From an uncultured virus (IMG/VR IMGVR_UViG_3300009001_000010) (lineage: Duplodnaviria > Heunggongvirae > Uroviricota > Caudoviricetes), in the IMG/VR virus record IMGVR_UViG_3300009001_000010, positions 1-64,000 of that record: DNA of 64,000 bases; one strand, written 5' to 3'. The notes beneath the pieces are model-generated. The model saw only the letters and a program-made list of their open reading frames with translations, ran no database searches and had not been told where the DNA came from. Below are positions 34,321 to 53,745 of the stretch, piece by piece. Each line of letters begins with the position of its first letter. The first letter of the stretch is position 1. The position numbers and the translations under genes are program-made.

Positions 34321-34638
34321 TTATATATTATCTTTTGTAGAAAAAATATCTATTTCTTTAGTAAATAATAAATCAATTGGGAGCATTTGATTATTAGAAG
34401 ACATAAATTTATGGTCTTCTGTACAATCAACATAATCTCCATTTTCTAAAGTGTATCTGTAAACAGTTTTAATACCTTTATCGTGCCATTGAGTGACTTG
34501 TTGAGCAACCCAAGGGGTAGCTTGAGTTGAATCATTACTAAGTACAAAACCAGAATATTGAGCTTTAACAATATCTTCAATAGTTCTAGATCTTTTTGTA
34601 AGAGTAGGAATTAATATTTCGGTATTTCCTGCTAAACA
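34321..34638 (-). other. Split intein N-fragment (IntN, 105 aa)
   Basis: Cys1 CLAGNTEIL, QWHDKG, block B CTEDHKFM, QMLPID, then stop. Confidence 0.95.
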
Positions 34639-35937
34639 ATAATCAGCAAAACCTAAAATATCTTTCCAAAGATCTTTAGCATAGTCAGATAACAAGCCAC
34701 CTACTTTTACAGAATTTTCTATAAATTTTTCTTCATATTTTTCAAGAACGGAAAGTTTTTTCTTACCCATAGCTCGTCGAACATCATCTGCTTCTTGTTG
34801 AGTAAAACCTGCTAAATCGGTAAATAATTTCATAATTTGTTCCTGATATATTAAAGTCCAATAAGAAGCTTTTAGAATTTCAGCAACTTGAAGAGGTAAA
34901 TCTTCAGGCGGAGAATTATTTAATTTATTAGCAATATAAGTTTTATCAAGACCAGCTTGCAAAGGGCCAGGGCGGTTGATAGCACTGATAGCACTAAGAT
35001 CTTCTATGCTAGCGGGTTGTATGTCATTAATTAATCGTTTAGCGGTACCGGATGTTTCCATTTGAAAAATACCAGTTAAACAACCTAAATTTAAATATTT
35101 ATAAGCTAACTCGTCGCCATCTGGTATAGAATAAGGCTCTAAATCTATGTTGTAATTTTGTTTAATTAAATTTTTACATTCTTTGATAATAGATAAAGTG
35201 TCAATACCTAAAAAATCAAACTTAATAAGCCCAAGCTCTTCACATTCATCTTTATCATATTGAGTAATTCTTTCTGCTTTACTATTAGACCAAACAGGAA
35301 CAGTATCATGTATTTCTTTATCTGAAATAATGACACCAGCTGCATGGATGCCAAAATTAGCAACCATGTTTTCTATTCTATCAGCAAATTCTAAAAAAGC
35401 AGAATATCTTTGATCATCAGAGAGGTCGGGATTTTCTTCAAGAACTTCTTCTAAAGTAGGTTCTTTGCCATACTTAGGAGGAGGAAACATTTTTAATAAC
35501 TCGTTAAGTTCAGAAGAATCACCTTCGTGTATTCTATAAAAAGAACGAGCTAATGATTTTGGTTTAAAAGTTCCATGAGTTATAATATTGGCAACTCTCT
35601 CACGCCCCCAATAATCAATGCACCATTGTATTGCTTTCTCTCTATCTAAAGCATCATGGTCTATATCAATATCGGGAGGCGCACCCCCAATAGTATCTGA
35701 TCTCATTTTATTAAAATCAAACACATCGGTAAGTCCAGTAATATAAAGTAAAATACTATTATATGGATTTTCTAAAAAAGAATGTTTAGACTGTAAACAA
35801 GATTCAATTCTGTCTAAATCTTCTAAAGAAATCATAGCAACTTCTTGATGGAGAAAATCTGGATCTACTTTTTGATAACGATCTTCAATAATATAAGAAT
35901 CTATTTCTTTTAAAAAAGTTTCTCGAGATTTAAACAT
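34321..35937 (-). CDS. dnaE: DNA polymerase III alpha (DnaE) middle fragment (palm/fingers) ending in split intein IntN
   Basis: PPDIDID, HAAGVII, GLIKFDFLG, GIFQME, RPGP, YQEQIM, RRAMGKKK, then FADY/CLAG intein start. Confidence 0.95.
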   Translation of the reverse strand: MFKSRETFLKEIDSYIIEDRYQKVDPDFLHQEVAMISLEDLDRIESCLQSKHSFLENPYNSILLYITGLTDVFDFNKMRSDTIGGAPPDIDIDHDALDREKAIQWCIDYWGRERVANIITHGTFKPKSLARSFYRIHEGDSSELNELLKMFPPPKYGKEPTLEEVLEENPDLSDDQRYSAFLEFADRIENMVANFGIHAAGVIISDKEIHDTVPVWSNSKAERITQYDKDECEELGLIKFDFLGIDTLSIIKECKNLIKQNYNIDLEPYSIPDGDELAYKYLNLGCLTGIFQMETSGTAKRLINDIQPASIEDLSAISAINRPGPLQAGLDKTYIANKLNNSPPEDLPLQVAEILKASYWTLIYQEQIMKLFTDLAGFTQQEADDVRRAMGKKKLSVLEKYEEKFIENSVKVGGLLSDYAKDLWKDILGFADYCLAGNTEILIPTLTKRSRTIEDIVKAQYSGFVLSNDSTQATPWVAQQVTQWHDKGIKTVYRYTLENGDYVDCTEDHKFMSSNNQMLPIDLLFTKEIDIFSTKDNI

Positions 35938-36000
35938 GTTAAACTTTCAAATAATAAAAAGATGGAAATTACCTAAAGTAAGAAACTGCAAAGGTGGTTG

Positions 36001-36345
36001 TTAAACCACCCAAGATTTGTTTAAATAATATTCAGGATTTTCTATAGATATATTAAATACTTGGGAAAGATTTTGTTTTTCTTGAATAGAAAATAATCTT
36101 TCGTTTAAAGAAAATAAAATTTGTAAAACTTTTTGAGTTTGACTATTTGCTTCACAAATAATTGTATAGTTAGCAGTCAAGTTATAAAGCAAAGCACTTA
36201 TAATGTAGTTTGTTTCATTACCTACAAAAAATTTTGCACATTTATAATTAGATTCGTCAGTAAAACACTTTTTTAAATTCTTAAATAAAGAACTTGTTGG
36301 ATCTACATTTAAGTTAAAAAGCGAGTTATTTGTATCCATATGCAC
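36001..36345 (-). CDS. Hypothetical protein
   Basis: 114-aa ORF between dnaE fragments. Confidence 0.45.
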   Translation of the reverse strand: MHMDTNNSLFNLNVDPTSSLFKNLKKCFTDESNYKCAKFFVGNETNYIISALLYNLTANYTIICEANSQTQKVLQILFSLNERLFSIQEKQNLSQVFNISIENPEYYLNKSWVV

Positions 36346-36352
36346 CTGCTTG

Positions 36353-36580
36353 TTATCTTACAGATGTCCAATCTGTATAATTTGTAAAATCACATTTCAT
36401 AATTTTAACATCAGTTCTCTGAGTTAATCTTCTGTAAGATCTAGCATCAGATCTAGTAGTGTGTAATGTCCTACCTTTAATAGTTATAGGTGTATTTGTC
36501 GTTTGATCGACAACAGCATAAAGAGTGGTAGCACAAGTATCTATAGGAGTAACTAGATTAGTCATAATTATTTCTTTCAA
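36353..36580 (-). CDS. Hypothetical protein
   Basis: 75-aa ORF between dnaE fragments. Confidence 0.45.
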   Translation of the reverse strand: MKEIIMTNLVTPIDTCATTLYAVVDQTTNTPITIKGRTLHTTRSDARSYRRLTQRTDVKIMKCDFTNYTDWTSVR

Positions 36581-37887
36581 AAAGGTAAAGTAAACTGATC
36601 TGCTTGCTCAGCCATTTGTTTATTAAAAATAAGAGGGGTAGCAGCACGACCCTCATTAAGAAAACGAGAAAACATAAGATCGTATTTAATTGGATCAATT
36701 TCAGTAATGCCTAAAGACCAGGCTACAAGAGAACCAGCAGCAGAACCTCGACCGGGCCCATGCATTACTCCATAATCTCTAGCACCATTCATAAATTGAG
36801 AAACAATTAACATATAATCAGAAAAACCCATACGTTTAATTACATTTAACTCATGATCAAGCCTATCTCGATATTCTTGAGGAGGCATATCATTAAACCT
36901 ATTGTATAAACCGTGTTGAGATTCTAAAGTAAGGAATTCAAAACTTTTATAAGTTTCTGGAAGATCTTGAAACTTAGGATAACGGTTCATTCTATCCATA
37001 AAATAAGTTTCATTATCTATCAAATCAGCTACATGAACTGTATTAGATATGACGTCGTAAGGCATATTTTGTTGGTTAGCTTCATTCCAAGTCCAATCAT
37101 GAGATGCAAAATGAACATCTATTGGTCCGAAACTAAATCTTTTTTCATCAGAAAGTACAGTTTTAGTTTGCATACACAAAGCGGCTTCATGATGTTGTTT
37201 ATCATGTTCATGAGTGTAATGACAATCACATGTAAGTACCATAGGTAAATTATGTTTAGAAGCAATTTCTTGCAAAACTTTATTTACAGCTTGTTGCTCT
37301 TCATCTTTATGGAGTTGAAGTTCCACAAGAAATCTATCTTTAAACATTTCTTTATGATGTAAAATAAGATTTTCTGCGGCTTTTTTCTCACCCATAAGGA
37401 TGAGTTGACTTGCTCTACTACCCAAACAAGTAGTGGTAGCAATAATACCTTCAGAATATTGAGCAATAAGAGCATCATCAATACGTGGTTTACGATACAT
37501 ACCTTCAGTATAAGCATAAGAACTGAGCTTCATGAGGTTATGTAAACCAATATTATTTTGAGCTAACAAAATCAAATGATAATAAGACTTGCCTAAATGG
37601 TCAGGTTCTTTTGCAGTTCTATCATTTATAGTATAATAAGCTTCCATACCGATAATTGGTTTTATATCTTGTTTTTTACATTCTTTATAAAATTTGTAAC
37701 TACCTGATACATTACCATGATCTGTCATCGCTACAGCAGGCATACCCATTTGTTTTGCATAAGCAGGAAGCCTATTAACTTTATTAATTCCATCTAAAAG
37801 ACTATATTCTGTATGTACATGCAAATGCACATAAGGCTTTTCAGACGGATTCTGATGTTGGTTTTGATGATTGCATGTCGTTGCCAT
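36577..37887 (-). CDS. dnaE: DNA polymerase III alpha (DnaE) N-terminal fragment (PHP domain + start of palm)
   Basis: HLHVHTEYSLLDG, TDHGN, GMEAY, HLILLA, CLGS, DCHY, GPGRGSAAGSLVAW.LGIT..DPIKYDL.F.RFLN; stops just before PDIDID. Confidence 0.95.
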   Translation of the reverse strand: MATTCNHQNQHQNPSEKPYVHLHVHTEYSLLDGINKVNRLPAYAKQMGMPAVAMTDHGNVSGSYKFYKECKKQDIKPIIGMEAYYTINDRTAKEPDHLGKSYYHLILLAQNNIGLHNLMKLSSYAYTEGMYRKPRIDDALIAQYSEGIIATTTCLGSRASQLILMGEKKAAENLILHHKEMFKDRFLVELQLHKDEEQQAVNKVLQEIASKHNLPMVLTCDCHYTHEHDKQHHEAALCMQTKTVLSDEKRFSFGPIDVHFASHDWTWNEANQQNMPYDVISNTVHVADLIDNETYFMDRMNRYPKFQDLPETYKSFEFLTLESQHGLYNRFNDMPPQEYRDRLDHELNVIKRMGFSDYMLIVSQFMNGARDYGVMHGPGRGSAAGSLVAWSLGITEIDPIKYDLMFSRFLNEGRAATPLIFNKQMAEQADQFTLPF

Positions 37888-46345: not shown

Positions 46346-46774
46346 CTACTGCCACCCTAACATTCGAGGAAGAGCAGCAGTAAATAATCTACCAAGAACT
46401 TGAAACTCTCCAGCAGATAAAGAAACAGAAACTCTTTTATCCCCTGAAGAAAGACCCATCATAAAAGTACCAGCATATTTACCTTCGCCAGGTGTAATAG
46501 TAAGCTTTTTGCCAGTACCATCATTATCATGATAAAAACTTCCCCACTTTGGGGAAGAAGGATCATCAAAAAATTGAGTTAAATCATTGATACCAAAAGC
46601 AAATGTAATCTTTTGATTTTTCCAATCATAAGATTTTTCTCCTTGAGAAGGAGCCATCTCTAAAAGCACCGCACCAGTTTTTTGAATTCTATTATTATCG
46701 TCTACTCTAGGAGGCAATAAAGTGAATTGAGCTGCTGCAGATTTTTTATAAATGTTAAATGAAGTTGGATACAT
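46346..46774 (-). CDS. Whirly-like ssDNA-binding protein
   Basis: IYKKSAA, GAVLLEMAP..G...YDW, FYHD, EFQVL...F...LP.MLGW match plant Whirly motifs in order; start MYPTS at 46774 with AAGGAA SD. Confidence 0.7.
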   Translation of the reverse strand: MYPTSFNIYKKSAAAQFTLLPPRVDDNNRIQKTGAVLLEMAPSQGEKSYDWKNQKITFAFGINDLTQFFDDPSSPKWGSFYHDNDGTGKKLTITPGEGKYAGTFMMGLSSGDKRVSVSLSAGEFQVLGRLFTAALPRMLGWQ

Positions 46775-47630
46775 TATTTTCCTTTTCCAAGTTATAATAT
46801 TCGTCGGAAATTGATTCACAAAGATCAGCTAATACAGATCTATATTGTGAAGTTAAAGTTATTTGTGAAGTTGCTGTAGAATCTTTAAATGCATAAGATT
46901 CTAAAAAAATGTGTAAACCAGATTCCTTTTTTCTAAAAGGAGCATCTATTTGACCTAAATCACCAAGGCAAATTAATTTACTTGTAGAAGCAACTCTAGA
47001 AACAATAGTTTTCATTGTATGGATATCTGCATTTTGACATTCATCAAATATAACAACTGAATTTTCTAAAGACATGCCTCTTGCTAATTCTACTGGAAGG
47101 TATTTTAACCTGTTGTTTTCAAGCATTTCGAATATAAAATGCTCAGCATCTCTACCTAAAAGAGAGTTTATATGTACCATATAACTAGACATGATACCAG
47201 ACATTTTATCGTTTACATCACCAGGTAAAATGCCCATAACATTAGATTTACCTCCTACATATATAGAAGGTTTAATTAAAACAATATCTTTGTCATTTTT
47301 AAAATATTCATTTAAAGCGTAAGCTATAGAAAGCAAGGTTTTGCCAGTACCAGCTTTTCCTAAAGCAACAGACATTAAAATATTTTTATCTAATAAGGAA
47401 TCAATAAAAGCTTTTTGTTTAGAGTCTTTTGGTTTGATTCCTTGTAAATCTTTATAAGATAAAAGAGTAAAGTATGGAGATTTATATTTAGCTAAAGCTG
47501 AAGAAGTAGAAGATTTTAAAACTAAATATTCATTTTCATCTGGTTCAAAATCAAAAAAATCAGGTATTTTTAATTTCTTTTCTTTAAAAAATGAATCAAT
47601 ATAATTTTGGTCTATATGCAGATCTCTCAT
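46755..47630 (-). CDS. phoH: PhoH-family ATPase
   Basis: GKAGTGKT, G.LPG...DKM, ARGMSL, DECQN, LGDLGQID. Confidence 0.9.
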   Translation of the reverse strand: MRDLHIDQNYIDSFFKEKKLKIPDFFDFEPDENEYLVLKSSTSSALAKYKSPYFTLLSYKDLQGIKPKDSKQKAFIDSLLDKNILMSVALGKAGTGKTLLSIAYALNEYFKNDKDIVLIKPSIYVGGKSNVMGILPGDVNDKMSGIMSSYMVHINSLLGRDAEHFIFEMLENNRLKYLPVELARGMSLENSVVIFDECQNADIHTMKTIVSRVASTSKLICLGDLGQIDAPFRKKESGLHIFLESYAFKDSTATSQITLTSQYRSVLADLCESISDEYYNLEKENNVSNFI

Positions 47631-48027: not shown

Positions 48028-48425
48028 GCTTTTACCCAATAAGTAGTTTTGCGGTTATTATCATTTTGAATAATATCTCTTACATAATTATTAGAAATTA
48101 AATAATTAGATAAGGCTACATTAGAAGGAGTATTTTTAGGCATAACTTTTTTGACATGATCAAAAAGCTTAGAAAAAATAACTGTTTTATTTTTTTGTAA
48201 ATATCTTGCTACAATAGTAGCTTGTTTTGAATTTAAAGAACGAGTAGATCTTGTTCTATTTACTGGCCAGACTTTGTAATCAGTAATTCTTTTCTTTTTT
48301 TGTTTAACAATAGGCTTTTGTTGTTGAGAAACAGTAAAAGGTGAATGTTGATTTTTTACAAAAGTTTTAAAAGAAGAATTTACCTCGTCAGAAGTTCCTT
48401 CAAAAACATATACTTTTAAATTCAT
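48024..48425 (-). CDS. Basic hypothetical protein (possible DNA-binding)
   Basis: 133 aa, Lys/Arg-rich. Confidence 0.45.
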   Translation of the reverse strand: MNLKVYVFEGTSDEVNSSFKTFVKNQHSPFTVSQQQKPIVKQKKKRITDYKVWPVNRTRSTRSLNSKQATIVARYLQKNKTVIFSKLFDHVKKVMPKNTPSNVALSNYLISNNYVRDIIQNDNNRKTTYWVKA

Positions 48426-48427
48426 AA

Positions 48428-48733
48428 TTAGTCTTTCTTCAAAGGAAAAAATAAGTAACTATCATTTTCCAAAATTAAAGCACCAGCAGTATTTTTTCTA
48501 AATTTATAATTAGATTCATAATCAGAATTTAGAAAATCATGTAACCAAACTAAAGCTTCTTCTTTAGAAGGAAAAATATCAATAGTTAAAATATAATACC
48601 TTTTGGTATTAAGAAGTACAGGAGTATAATCGGGATAAGCTTCTAGCCAATGAGAATCAGATTCTTTAGCAGCTAAATAAGCTTTTTTTCCTGATTCACC
48701 CCGGCTAATAATATAATCAGGAAGTGCGGGCAT
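48428..48733 (-). CDS. Hypothetical protein
   Basis: 101-aa ORF coupled (TAATG) to the di-Ubl gene. Confidence 0.5.
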   Translation of the reverse strand: MPALPDYIISRGESGKKAYLAAKESDSHWLEAYPDYTPVLLNTKRYYILTIDIFPSKEEALVWLHDFLNSDYESNYKFRKNTAGALILENDSYLFFPLKKD

Positions 48734-49164
48734 TAAATATTGCCCTTAACACTACCTGTAGCAAAAACTTCTGAATTTGGTGCAACAAGAGTTGCTTCCC
48801 ATTGAGTTGCAGGGATGCCTGCACCATTAACAATGATATCTCTACCATGCAAATTCTCTTGGCAAACAAGTTCAGCAAGAGTCATAGTTTGAGAAACATT
48901 TACAACTCTGGCGCCAGGACCAGGGATAACAACTAAAGTAATCGTATCTTGATTACCTTTAACGCTGCCTGTAGCAAATATTTCTGCATTTTGAGAGATA
49001 AGGGTAGTCTCCCACTGTGATGCAGGAATTCCTGTACCATTAATAATAATATCGCGGCCATGCAAATTCTCTTGACAAGCGAGCTGAGCAACAGTCATGT
49101 CGGGAGTAATAGTTACGGTGCGAGCACCAGGGCCAGGAATAACAACAAGTGTAACTGTAGACAT
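48733..49164 (-). CDS. Tandem di-ubiquitin-like (beta-grasp) protein precursor
   Basis: Two ~70-aa repeats (TLVVIPGPGAR...MT..L...ENLHGRDII.NG...IFATGSVKG), each ending KG|N. Confidence 0.8.
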   Translation of the reverse strand: MSTVTLVVIPGPGARTVTITPDMTVAQLACQENLHGRDIIINGTGIPASQWETTLISQNAEIFATGSVKGNQDTITLVVIPGPGARVVNVSQTMTLAELVCQENLHGRDIIVNGAGIPATQWEATLVAPNSEVFATGSVKGNI

Positions 49165-49232
49165 AAATTAAATAAAATCCTAAAATAAGTTAAAATATTT
49201 TTTATTTAATTTTATTTTACTTTAATATATTT

Positions 49233-49520
49233 TTATTTTCCGCGAGTAGGGTTATTACCACGGCCACCACCGCTTGGGCGGCCAGTAGTAGATGGACCAT
49301 TCTTCATATTGCCTTTTACAGAACCAGTAGCAAAAATTTCTGAACCTGAAGCAATTAATGTTGTTGGAAAAGTATTTGGAGCAACACCTGATCCATCAAC
49401 AATAATATCTCTTCCATGAAGATTTTCTTGAATAACAAGTTGTTCTACAGTCATGTCGGGAGTAATAGTTACAGTACGGGCTCCAGGCCCAGGAATAACG
49501 ACTAAAGTAATTGTAGACAT
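49233..49520 (-). CDS. Ubiquitin-like protein with C-terminal extension
   Basis: Same 70-aa domain ending GSVKG, followed by NMKNGPSTTGRPSGGGRGNNPTRGK. Confidence 0.8.
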   Translation of the reverse strand: MSTITLVVIPGPGARTVTITPDMTVEQLVIQENLHGRDIIVDGSGVAPNTFPTTLIASGSEIFATGSVKGNMKNGPSTTGRPSGGGRGNNPTRGK

Positions 49521-49533
49521 AAATTATAAATCC

Positions 49534-49728
49534 TTATTTATCAGTTTTTCTTTGGTTTCTAACAGCTTGAATATCGCTGCGTAAAGTTTTACAGCTTGCT
49601 GCTGTTTTAGATAAAGCGACTCTAATACGGCGTCCAGCCGCGTCTTGACCTCTTTCAAATTTATCTGCATCTTCTAAAGCAGAATTAAGAAGTTCAATCA
49701 TATAGGTTAATGTTTCTTTAGCGTCCAT
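49534..49728 (-). CDS. Histone H1-like Hc1-family small protein
   Basis: DADKFERGQDAAGRRIR...CKTLRSDIQ resembles the Hc1 N-terminal domain (GNKAA.R.R). Confidence 0.65.
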   Translation of the reverse strand: MDAKETLTYMIELLNSALEDADKFERGQDAAGRRIRVALSKTAASCKTLRSDIQAVRNQRKTDK

Positions 49729-49739
49729 AAAAATTTCCT

Positions 49740-50450
49740 TTATTTAAAGACAGTTAGTTGAGAGTTGTTGAGACTGAATATATGCTGACCATAATATTCA
49801 GATTTTTGTTGAGGGTTTCTATCTTCTGCAGCGTGCATACATAAAGCGTGTACGACATTAGAAGATACAATGTTAGTTAAAGTAGTAATAATTCTTTCGT
49901 TACAAGCAGATTCTGTAACTTCGTCATCAGACTTGAGAAGATCAACGAAATTAGTCATCTTTTCTTTATTATCTGTTTTAATAATATTAAGAATAGCATG
50001 AGAGAAACCCATTTTAGTTTCAAACATAGTATGAACGAAAGGATGATAAATTAAAGAAGAAGCTATTTCTTTTCTAGCAGATAATGAGTCAACAGCTACA
50101 AAAACGTAGTCTTCCAATTCTGATGAATGAGAAAGATCATTACCATCAAAAAAATGATTAAATGTTTGTACATTTACTTGAGGATTAAAAGTTTCTAATA
50201 CTTCTTTAAGTGCAGTAACTTTAGGTTGACCAACATGAGAGAGATTGTAAACTTGGTTTGGTAAGTTATGAGACTCGACAATATCTGCATCCCAAATTTT
50301 AAAATTATGCCAACCCATTTTTGCAGCCAACAAAGCGACCCAAGAACCAGTTGCACCTGCACCAATAATATTTAAAAATTTACCAGAAGCATCTTCAGGA
50401 CCAAAAAAAGCTCCATGGCGTAAAAAACTCACTTGATTAATAACTGACAT
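49740..50450 (-). CDS. E1/ThiF-family adenylating enzyme
   Basis: IIGAGATGS, DADIVESHNLPNQ, G.PKV.AL, AVDSLSAR, candidate catalytic Cys in ESAC. Confidence 0.9.
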   Translation of the reverse strand: MSVINQVSFLRHGAFFGPEDASGKFLNIIGAGATGSWVALLAAKMGWHNFKIWDADIVESHNLPNQVYNLSHVGQPKVTALKEVLETFNPQVNVQTFNHFFDGNDLSHSSELEDYVFVAVDSLSARKEIASSLIYHPFVHTMFETKMGFSHAILNIIKTDNKEKMTNFVDLLKSDDEVTESACNERIITTLTNIVSSNVVHALCMHAAEDRNPQQKSEYYGQHIFSLNNSQLTVFK

Positions 50451-51522: not shown

Positions 51523-53745
51523 TTACGTTTCATTCAAAGTGTTATAAGTAGCAAAGGGGACATAATTATTATTGTTTATTTGATCTTCTTGTAAATTATT
51601 TTGTTCTGGTTGGTCTGGAATATCTTGACTTTCTTCTGAATCTTCTTCAGTGAAAGAACTTAAAAAGTTATTGACGTCAGTATCAGTAACAATTTCTTTT
51701 TCAGATTCTAATTTCAAAGATAAAGGTTTTAACTCATTTGAAAAATAAATATAATTAGAACCCCAAGGATCTGCAGAGTTGGCTGATCTAACCCAAGTCA
51801 AAGCAGACAAAAGAATTAACTTTAAATCATTTTGTTGAAATGCATTATAAATTAAAGGAGAAGCTTCTCCAAGACAAGCATTCGACCATTCAAATAAAGT
51901 GTCAATATTAGATGTACCACCAGTATGTGGATGGATATAGTAATACGCATTACTTGAATTATAACCAAACAAAGAAGAATTATAAGCCAATTTAACTTTT
52001 AATCTATTTTGTGTAACCTGAATAAGATAAGGTCCGCCAAAAATTGATTGATTTTTATCTACGACTTTAATTTCTGCAGGGCAGTTTAACAAAAAAGTTA
52101 CTTGTTTAATTTTATAATAATTTTTAGAAACATTTGTATAAAAATCAATTTTATCTTGATCGGATAAATTATCAAAATTTTTAGTAGTTAAATCAAAATT
52201 ATAATTTTGAGAATAATATTCTATTGAATGAATAAAAATATTTTCTTTAGTCAAATTATTTAAAAAATCATTAGTTTCAAAATTTTGATTTTCATAAGAA
52301 AGAGCTAAAGCTGAATTATAATTTGATTTAACTTGATTATATAAAGGATAATTAGAAGATATATAATTGAAAGAATCAGATATAGTTTGAAAATTTTCTA
52401 CAAGAGATTTTTTTTCAATATCAATTCGATCAATTGCTTTTTTTATTTCTTTAGCAAGACTTAAAAGAGAAGCCTTGTTTCTTCGTAAAGAAGATAAATT
52501 TGTTGCTAAATCAATTGATTTAATATTTGATTGATTGTTTTCAATTAAAGTTTTAAATTTATTAAACTTTTGCTCAAGTTTAAAATCTATTTTAGGTTTA
52601 TTTAAAATAGAACTATTAATTTTTTTAGAAAAAGGCTCATATTCAGGATTAGTAATTAAAAGCAAAGTATCAATTAAATGAGAAGGAATTTCTTCCAAAT
52701 GGGTAGAAGAAAAAGCAGCAAGACTTTTGAGTTTTTCAGCTACAAGCTTATTATACTCTTCTATATTAGTAAGTTTTAAACCATCATAATCAAATAATAT
52801 ATTAATTAAATCTTTAAAACGAGCTTTTGGATTTTTTCTATTTTCTACTTCATTTATAAGAGCATTAGAAATAAAAGAAAAAATATAACAATCTTTTTCA
52901 TTTAAAGAAGAATCTAAATATTTCATCTTGAATAATACAGGAATTAAACAAGTTTTTCTTTTAAGGGCTTGATTCTTAGTATAACTAGTAAATTCAATTT
53001 CTTTATCTTTTGACCTAGCAGACCAAGAAGGAACTTTCAAAACCTGAAGTCGGGAAGAATTTATTGAATCTAAATAAGATGTTAAATCAAAATCAAAAGC
53101 AAAATTTAATAAATTTAAAATATCAAATTTTTTATTTTTACTATTAATAGTTCTAGTAAAACTATTGTTTAATTTATATGTTCTAAAAGATGTATTTGAA
53201 ATAATTTCTTCAGTAAAATAATCAGGATTAGCAATGTTTGCAGCATCATAAATATTTTTAGAAAAAACAGAAAAAACAGGTTTGTCATTATAAGATGAAA
53301 TTTGTTTTAAAGAATAATCAAAAATATTTATATCAAAAGTTTGTTCTTGATTATTTTGTTTAAATAAAAAACATTTAATTAAATCTTGTTGAGAATATGT
53401 TTCTGAATTTAAAAGAAATAAATTATTTAATTCATCAGAAATTTCAGAAAAAGCAGTCGAGTCAGACCAACTATTTTCAAAATAATTGATTCCAGAAAGA
53501 AAAGAAGAATATCTGTTAACAAGAGTAAAAAAAGGAATTTTTTTTTCTAGAAACGAAGAGTAAGTAGATTTTAAACTATAAGGAAAATTATATAAAAACC
53601 AATCTTTAGTCTTACGATTATAATAAATATCTTTATTTAAAATTTCAATAGAATTTAAATCTGAATTTAATTTAAAAAGATTGTTAATTTGAGAAAGCGT
53701 TTCAGGAGTGTAATCAGAAGTACAATAGTAATATTTTCTATTCAT
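51523..53745 (-). CDS. Large protein with coiled coil and C-terminal prokaryotic E2-like domain
   Basis: GPYLI...IHPH...NACLG...L..AN..DPWG; HPH...CLG mirrors the E2 HPN...C active site. Confidence 0.65.
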   Translation of the reverse strand: MNRKYYYCTSDYTPETLSQINNLFKLNSDLNSIEILNKDIYYNRKTKDWFLYNFPYSLKSTYSSFLEKKIPFFTLVNRYSSFLSGINYFENSWSDSTAFSEISDELNNLFLLNSETYSQQDLIKCFLFKQNNQEQTFDINIFDYSLKQISSYNDKPVFSVFSKNIYDAANIANPDYFTEEIISNTSFRTYKLNNSFTRTINSKNKKFDILNLLNFAFDFDLTSYLDSINSSRLQVLKVPSWSARSKDKEIEFTSYTKNQALKRKTCLIPVLFKMKYLDSSLNEKDCYIFSFISNALINEVENRKNPKARFKDLINILFDYDGLKLTNIEEYNKLVAEKLKSLAAFSSTHLEEIPSHLIDTLLLITNPEYEPFSKKINSSILNKPKIDFKLEQKFNKFKTLIENNQSNIKSIDLATNLSSLRRNKASLLSLAKEIKKAIDRIDIEKKSLVENFQTISDSFNYISSNYPLYNQVKSNYNSALALSYENQNFETNDFLNNLTKENIFIHSIEYYSQNYNFDLTTKNFDNLSDQDKIDFYTNVSKNYYKIKQVTFLLNCPAEIKVVDKNQSIFGGPYLIQVTQNRLKVKLAYNSSLFGYNSSNAYYYIHPHTGGTSNIDTLFEWSNACLGEASPLIYNAFQQNDLKLILLSALTWVRSANSADPWGSNYIYFSNELKPLSLKLESEKEIVTDTDVNNFLSSFTEEDSEESQDIPDQPEQNNLQEDQINNNNYVPFATYNTLNET

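Follow-up and report, generated by a model that had tools for sequence, protein, structure and literature searches.

Ubl precursor genes and their neighbourhood

The window, that is, the whole 64,000-nt stretch of viral DNA analysed here, carries on its minus strand two genes built from ubiquitin-like (Ubl) units, one of which fuses a single unit to a short peptide while the other joins two units head to tail (Table 1). As the earlier note on this DNA had described, all three units close with the same FATGSVKG-N end, which leads into a 25-aa extension, a second unit or the residues NI, and none of the three has a free C-terminal Gly. Pairwise, the units share 44-52 of 70 residues (63-74%), and the underlying DNA repeat has a period of 213 nt, or 71 codons. 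Synonymous codon differences are present at the junctions, which argues that the junction is conserved as protein and does not reflect a fresh DNA duplication. We found no further Ubl units elsewhere in the 73,279-base record, and neither a terminator nor a convincing minus-strand promoter was found in positions 48300-49800. The AlphaFold model of the di-Ubl protein contains two beta-grasp domains (pLDDT 86.8), and this two-domain model matches ThiS, MoaD, ISG15 and linear di-ubiquitin.

Table 1. Positions of the genes, units and residues discussed in the text.
Feature	Position	Strand	Remarks
101-aa gene	48428..48733	-	distant member of the ~95-aa family; one-base overlap between its start and the di-Ubl stop
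di-Ubl precursor gene, 143 aa	48733..49164	-	
Ubl unit B1, Met1-Asn71	48952..49164	-	
Ubl unit B2, Gln72-Asn142	48739..48951	-	Gln72 aligned with Met1
One-residue cap, Ile143	48736..48738	-	NI cap if the cut were G|N
Ubl-peptide precursor gene, 95 aa	49233..49520	-	
Ubl unit A, Met1-Asn71	49308..49520	-	likely mature tag
Cargo peptide, 24 aa, Met72-Lys95	49236..49307	-	PSxTGxPSGxGRGN micro-protein family
Hc1-like small basic protein	49534..49728	-	PF07432, E 8.3e-8; in 27/29 complete related loci
ThiF-family E1, 236 aa	49740..50450	-	single bare adenylation domain
E1 Cys183	49902-49904	-	invariant
E1 Glu144	50019-50021	-	tracks Asn end of tag
E1 Thr34	50349-50351	-	tracks Asn end of tag
JAB/JAMM protease, 351 aa	50457..51512	-	motif intact
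740-aa protein with C-terminal E2-like domain	51523..53745	-	domain about 51718-52143
Acidic tail of the 740-aa protein	51523-51600	-	
Whirly-family gene	46346-46819		
Lon-like protein, 540 aa	54670-56292	-	
DNA polymerase (phrog_405)	34321-37887	-	split over two adjacent ORFs

Upstream on the same strand lie the genes for a 740-aa protein, a JAB protease, a ThiF-family E1 (E 7.5e-25) and an Hc1-like protein. Among PDB sequences, the E1 is closest to the RiPP enzyme PaaA (E 2.5e-8), and Cys183 of the E1 was invariant in 35 of 35 sequences and then in 90 of 90 in a larger E1 alignment. The JAB gave weak library scores (PADLOC E 0.012, Pfam E 0.1); its residues Glu36, His107, His109, Ser117 and Asp120 are invariant in 18/18 sequences. 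The same is true of HPH 605-607 and Cys624 in the 740-aa protein (18/18), whose C-terminal domain was modelled with confidence (pLDDT 91.6). This domain had no Pfam, PDB-profile or Foldseek match, and its likeness to E2/RWD folds was weak (best E2 row: Z 3.1, rmsd 4.4, 101 aligned). We call the domain E2-like, a weak and tentative assignment.

Several other features of this region were noted. An acidic tail closes the E2-like protein, in which Tyr728 is conserved (18/18), and it is a possible docking motif. In most relatives the operon is flanked or interrupted by genes for nucleic-acid-binding proteins of the Whirly family (46346-46819 in the window, minus strand) and of Hc1 type, which are candidate targets or partners. 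The Lon-like protein covers positions 133-576 of the 795-position Lon profile, apparently without the protease domain; a role in unfolding tagged proteins is conceivable, and its gene is present in 10 of the 29 complete related loci, a count limited by the flanks. The DNA polymerase is split into parts that cover profile positions 30-443 and 442-790.

Related loci in phages

The record is classed as viral, and tail-fibre, primase and polymerase families match in the window. An identical copy of the locus is present on a 154,760-base contig (L014). Among 67 loci obtained with Ubl queries, the E1, the JAB and the large protein occur together in 29, a set of complete loci that includes duplicate records of one phage. 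No match to the window Ubl was found in cultured phages. Related E1s were nevertheless identified beside Ubl-like genes and candidate E2 genes (the latter assigned by motif and by eye) in Xanthomonas phage PhiXhv-15 (L232, 2733-6612), Bacteroides phage DAC15 (L233) and Flavobacterium phage Fpv3 (L234), where the cassette genes are annotated only as thiamine or hypothetical proteins. A JAB match was obtained in DAC15 and, below the cut-off, in Fpv3; none was obtained in PhiXhv-15 with two profiles, one of which likewise failed to detect the DAC15 and Fpv3 JABs. The tag of PhiXhv-15 has a free GG end, and in DAC15 and Fpv3 a cargo domain follows the tag at KSG-A or KSG-G, in contrast to KGN in the window. 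We also noticed an unrelated-looking four-unit polyubiquitin-like protein (P0214), each unit of which ends in KIKG-N. Cluster look-ups for 10 distant proteins returned no useful names.

Conservation of the junction

To judge where a precursor would be cut, we compared the junctions of homologous Ubl proteins. In the best 120 of 375 homologues, KG-N was present at 200 of 200 junctions and a free Gly at none, a regularity that is not due to chance; within the same 120, residue 72 was one of 15 different residues or a stop, and 21 stops came directly after Asn and none after Gly. Of 117 distinct junctions in related loci, 21 stop after Asn, and the 84 distinct Ubl genes of these loci comprise 21 that stop at Asn, 27 with 1-5 additional residues, 25 with the peptide, two with a folded domain and nine with other tails. 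Ninety-three distant single-domain representatives gave a similar picture, with 39 stopping at KG-A, 31 at KG-N, 19 continuing after KG-A or KG-N, four without KG and none stopping at Gly. These stops and variations indicate that the fixed residue is the one after Gly, and that the free position is 72. Residue 72 aligns with Met1, and some relatives have KGN-M. Relatives contain one to four units, and all internal units retain the full FATGSVKG-N end. Members of the same E1 subfamily have tags with GG, GA or NA in the KGN register.

The earlier note had proposed that all copies are masked precursors similar to eukaryotic polyubiquitin and ubiquitin-fusion genes, whose activation is gated by the JAB. 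The layout agrees with this proposal, and all three copies in the window require processing; as a rule for the family it does not hold, given the 21 of 84 genes that stop at Asn. Likewise, a JAB with an intact motif adjoins the Ubl genes, but gating is not universal, with at least one ready-made tag in 9 of the 29 complete loci. Protease gating per se is not new, as JABs are already known to trim Ubl precursors in bacteria, namely BilA and BubAB.

An alternative reading is that Asn71 is a cap, that the JAB cuts between Gly70 and Asn71, that conjugation occurs via the single Gly and that all family members are masked precursors. Gly70 is invariant in the close family, and known bacterial proteases act in this way: BilC trims one Ala off BilA, at Gly97|Ala98 (10.1101/2023.09.26.559546), a direct precedent for a one-residue cap after Gly, and BubCD cuts BubAB after Gly229 (PMC11601596). 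However, a dispensable residue would be expected to vary, whereas Asn persists in E1 lineages whose median identity is 32%. The overhangs of BilA are reported to vary in length (10.1101/2023.09.26.559546; 10.1101/2023.09.04.556158).

Structural register of the tag end

We then compared the end of the Ubl model with those of known beta-grasp proteins. Residues 3-71 of the model superimposed on ThiS 2-66 (Z 9.7, rmsd 2.0, 63 aligned) and residues 1-71 on residues 10-92 of a MoaD-family chain, so that residue 71 lay on ThiS 66 and on residue 92, respectively, and Asn142 of the model corresponded to MoaD 81 and human 88. The ubiquitin rows had an offset of +5 (66=71, 70=75, 71=76), which was already present in the last strand. 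In the sequence profile, built from 68 single units chosen for short tails, position 65 aligned with residue 60 of the 66 residues of ThiS without a gap. ThiS, MoaD and ubiquitin all end in Gly-Gly. Asn71 thus lies on the terminal Gly of all three proteins, which suggests that the mature end is most likely Asn, not Gly, and counts against a cut at Gly70|Asn71. One row, that of the NMR structure of ThiS (1f0z), places Gly70 on the terminal Gly66, counter to the other rows and in favour of such a cut.

For distant tags, the profile alignment fell short of the last strand, and ungapped threading that was blind to the tail was used instead; the alignment of distant Ubls was also too variable for a locus scan. 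Threading was clear in four of nine tags, and these shared one register, with GG (L232), GG plus a cap (L249) or GN (L243 and L251) at the end.

Co-variation of the E1 with the tag end

E1 sequences were collected by motif scans, the second of which covered 120 of about 300 stretches. From 141 parsed loci, 100 contained an E1, and 90 distinct E1s, including that of the window, were aligned. Tag ends, classed by regular expression, were assigned to 74 systems (43 GN, 16 NA, 10 GG, three GA, one GS and one AN), and 16 of the 90 E1s had no tag. Two E1 residues, which we take from MoeB-type structures to line the pocket for the terminal residue of the tag, follow its identity. Thr34 is present in 43/43 GN systems vs one of the 30 GG, GA, NA or GS systems, and in that single system (L335) a KGN tag is encoded as well; for Glu144 the counts are 43/43 vs 3/30. 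In one exception (L248, tag end SAN), neither Thr34 nor Glu144 is present. On a quick IQ-TREE tree of the E1s, in which columns 34 and 144 were left in, the type of tag end changes seven times (strong branches force three of these changes), and all four non-Asn systems that lie within Asn groups (L259, L306, L318 and L324) have lost Thr34.

The simplest reading of these sequence patterns is that the E1 contacts the terminal Asn, which would be impossible if Asn were clipped off before binding. The tracking of Asn by Thr34 and Glu144, together with related tags that end in NA without Gly, stands against a Gly70|Asn71 cut, and we consider that reading unlikely. In place of the 'single-Gly KG end' of the earlier note, these patterns point to KGN as the equivalent of GG, in agreement with conservation and structural register. 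Most likely, judging from alignments and models, the mature end is Asn and the precursor is cut at N|X; attachment of the tag is likely to be through Asn rather than Gly. The points that count against an Asn end are the Gly97|Ala98 cut of BilA, the 1f0z row, the limited number of clear threadings and the L248 exception.

Separately, Asn-Ala-ended tags were observed in 16 loci within L260-L331 (such as L276, L285, L297 and L326); eight of these tags stop at NA, without a terminal Gly. These systems belong mostly to one E1 clade with Val34 and Asp144.

A second alternative accepts the Asn end and assigns it a chemistry similar to that of microcin C or sulfur carriers, in which the E1 would make a succinimide or a nucleotide adduct, or the Ubl would carry a small group. 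The closest folds of the tag are ThiS and MoaD, the E1 is closest in the PDB to a RiPP enzyme, the E2 fold match is weak, and the ThiF-family enzyme MccB is reported to adenylate a C-terminal Asn and proceed to a succinimide without a thioester (PMC12250964). By analogy, an activated Asn could cyclise to a succinimide here as well, in competition with thioester transfer. On the other hand, Cys183 is invariant in all 90 E1s, including those of Gly- and Ala-ended systems that are incapable of forming a succinimide, and this common Cys argues for an ordinary thioester relay. In addition, the E2-like Cys domain and the JAB recur with the E1, and the 236-aa E1 is without the N-terminal peptide clamp of about 90 residues found in MccB. 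We therefore regard such chemistry as the main activity of the system as very unlikely.

That the internal junctions stay uncut, with the di-Ubl protein acting as a single two-domain tag in the manner of ISG15 and the Ubl-peptide protein functioning in its fused form, is hardly credible: ISG15 is the top Foldseek hit of the two-domain model and uncut multi-domain bacterial Ubls have been described (PMC11601603), but every internal unit keeps the full end motif, the number of units varies, and cargoes switch between fused and free forms.

Fused peptide and second cargo

The 25-aa tail of the Ubl-peptide gene is conserved in 39 of 120 homologues (the best 120 of 375) and in 17 of the 29 complete loci. 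Its core pattern was found in 43 viral stretches and in at least 121 listed cellular loci, and the species collection is estimated to contain about 770 such stretches. Titles of the peptide-bearing records include proteobacteria, Bacteroidota, Chloroflexota, Campylobacterota, myxobacteria, Nitrosopumilus and Thermoplasmata. When 162 peptide loci were parsed, 144 proved to be stand-alone ORFs (<=70 aa) and four to be Ubl fusions. A ribosome-binding-like motif precedes 75 of 108 peptide genes, compared with a background of 11%, and third codon positions vary. By these sequence features, the tail peptide is a conserved cargo rather than a random cap, and a member of a family of stand-alone micro-genes in bacteria and archaea. 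A tblastn search with the 25-aa tail against plasmids, in which the query was short and of low complexity, returned nothing, and our literature search, mostly of papers outside subscription journals, found no description of the peptide family or its function.

Nearest neighbours of the cellular peptide genes include restriction methylases and KAP, NYN and HipA-like genes. Thirty of 135 neighbours were put through PADLOC, and prokaryotic viperin adjoins the stand-alone peptide gene in four of 68 cellular loci (L117, L121, L135 and L152). These neighbourhoods hint at defence islands. The possibility that the stand-alone peptide is a ThiF/JAB substrate in cells was rejected, as none of the 135 nearest neighbours in the 68 loci is ThiF or JAB. 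An RGN-N sequence within the window peptide looks like a KGN-X junction and may mark a second place of cleavage, and several cellular peptide genes carry the motif twice.

A second cargo is an unnamed domain of ~95 aa, which a few relatives carry fused after KGN and most encode as a free protein. The Asn in the fused cargo domains occupies the place of the Met of the free gene, an arrangement that could speak for a Gly70|Asn71 cut and is compatible with either register. The 101-aa protein encoded next to the di-Ubl gene is a distant member of this family (26% over 100 aa, pairwise E 5e-6). A frameshift that joins the two genes was considered and rejected, as no slippery heptamer is present at the identical L014 junction and the gaps from stop to start vary in relatives; translational coupling of the di-Ubl and 101-aa genes is the preferred explanation.

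Comparison with known systems

Multi-domain Ubls and precursor trimming are known in bacteria (PMC11601603; 10.1101/2023.09.04.556158). Similar to Type II BilABCD of Ensifer aridi (10.1101/2023.09.26.559546) and Type I Bil (10.1101/2023.09.04.556158), as these are described in the cited reports, the locus has separate genes for Ubl, E2 (a putative one here), JAB and E1, a Cys-based E1 and E2 (predicted here), and a Ubl whose short C-terminal extension is taken off by the JAB (presumably here as well). It differs in being encoded by a phage rather than serving as a host anti-phage defence, in having a single 236-aa ThiF domain as E1 where the Bil E1 has IAD-AAD-CYS (PMC11601596), in the position of the E2-like domain at the end of a 740-aa protein, in several Ubl genes with an end motif in each unit, and in a likely reactive Asn where Bil has Gly.

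Type I Bub (6E/DUF6527) also has a Ubl placed N-terminal to another functional protein, from which it is released by a JAB. Bub is reported to act through Tyr/Ser oxyesters and to be cut after Gly229 (PMC11601596), whereas the E1 and E2-like proteins here keep an invariant Cys (90/90 and 18/18); moreover, the Ubl here is not fused to an E2, its fusion partner is either a peptide or a small unnamed domain, and the genes are separate. None of the 15 flanking proteins matched DUF6527.

In eukaryotes, polyubiquitin and ubiquitin-ribosomal-protein genes consist of head-to-tail units with a capping residue, or of a ubiquitin fused to the N-terminus of an independent cargo. The phage genes resemble them in having spacerless head-to-tail units, a cap and independent cargoes (the peptide and the ~95-aa domain, both found as free genes), and differ from them in having units that are 63-74% identical instead of identical, a ThiS/MoaD-like sequence, KGN instead of GG, and a JAB as the putative cutter. 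The likeness to polyubiquitin is a convergence of gene layout and not membership.

ThiS, MoaD and SAMP2, with ThiF, MoeB and UbaA, are nearest to the tag in fold and in sequence profile and share a ThiF-family E1 with it; the GG end is absent here, and E2-like and JAB partners and fusion precursors are present. For PRTRC, TIGR03736 scored 24.3 bits (cut-off 144.75), and the tags had no PRTRC or Prok_Ub match. In contrast to the MccB/MccA pair of microcin C (PMC12250964), the substrate here is a folded Ubl instead of a short peptide and the E1 has the Cys and lacks the clamp; in an alignment through L249, MccB has Ile at the position of Thr34. The system thus falls outside Bil, Bub, PRTRC and sulfur carriers on their defining features, and works like Bil.

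Proposed mechanism and implications

We consider it probable that the locus encodes phage Ubl precursors with Lys-Gly-Asn71 as the working end, which the JAB cuts after Asn and which are passed from the E1 to the E2-like protein for tagging of a target protein. If cut at N|X, the window products would yield a free Ile, a basic peptide of 24 aa and three mature tags. Adenylation of the Asn71 carboxylate by the E1, for which the action of the ThiF-family enzyme MccB on a C-terminal Asn is a precedent (PMC12250964), would lead to a thioester at Cys183, from which the tag would pass to Cys624 of the E2-like domain and then to an amine of the target, and the JAB may also reverse conjugation. The intact E1 Cys, JAB motif and E2-like Cys count in favour of this cleavage and relay, and the existence of both cargoes as free genes counts in favour of release. 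The peptide would then be a co-expressed cargo, similar to the ribosomal proteins fused to eukaryotic ubiquitin.

The published Ubl work compared here treats a C-terminal Gly as obligatory. Our literature search, mostly of papers outside subscription journals and judged by title and abstract opening, did not find a phage-encoded E1-E2-JAB Ubl system or an Asn-ended tag described. If true, an Asn end on the tag and an E1 that co-varies with it would overturn the obligatory-Gly rule and provide a two-residue specificity switch, and such a tag would be a candidate orthogonal tagging tool. Speculatively, the Asn end may make the tag orthogonal to Gly-specific E1s and de-conjugating JABs of the host. 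The phages PhiXhv-15, DAC15 and Fpv3 offer ready experimental models.

More broadly, the locus places an E1-E2-JAB conjugation set on the side of the phage, while the characterised bacterial systems are host defences, and it extends polyubiquitin-like and ubiquitin-fusion-like genes beyond eukaryotes. The fused peptide, in turn, brings to light a family of micro-genes that is strongly conserved in bacteria and archaea. Only tentatively, and with somewhat more doubt than belief, we suggest a broader picture in which phage Ubl linkages are tunable and non-Gly (Asn here, Ala or Gly in relatives), are set by two residues of the E1 pocket and are invisible to host Gly-specific enzymes, and in which the tag may also serve as a release device for a cross-phylum micro-protein that acts in the conflict between phage and host.
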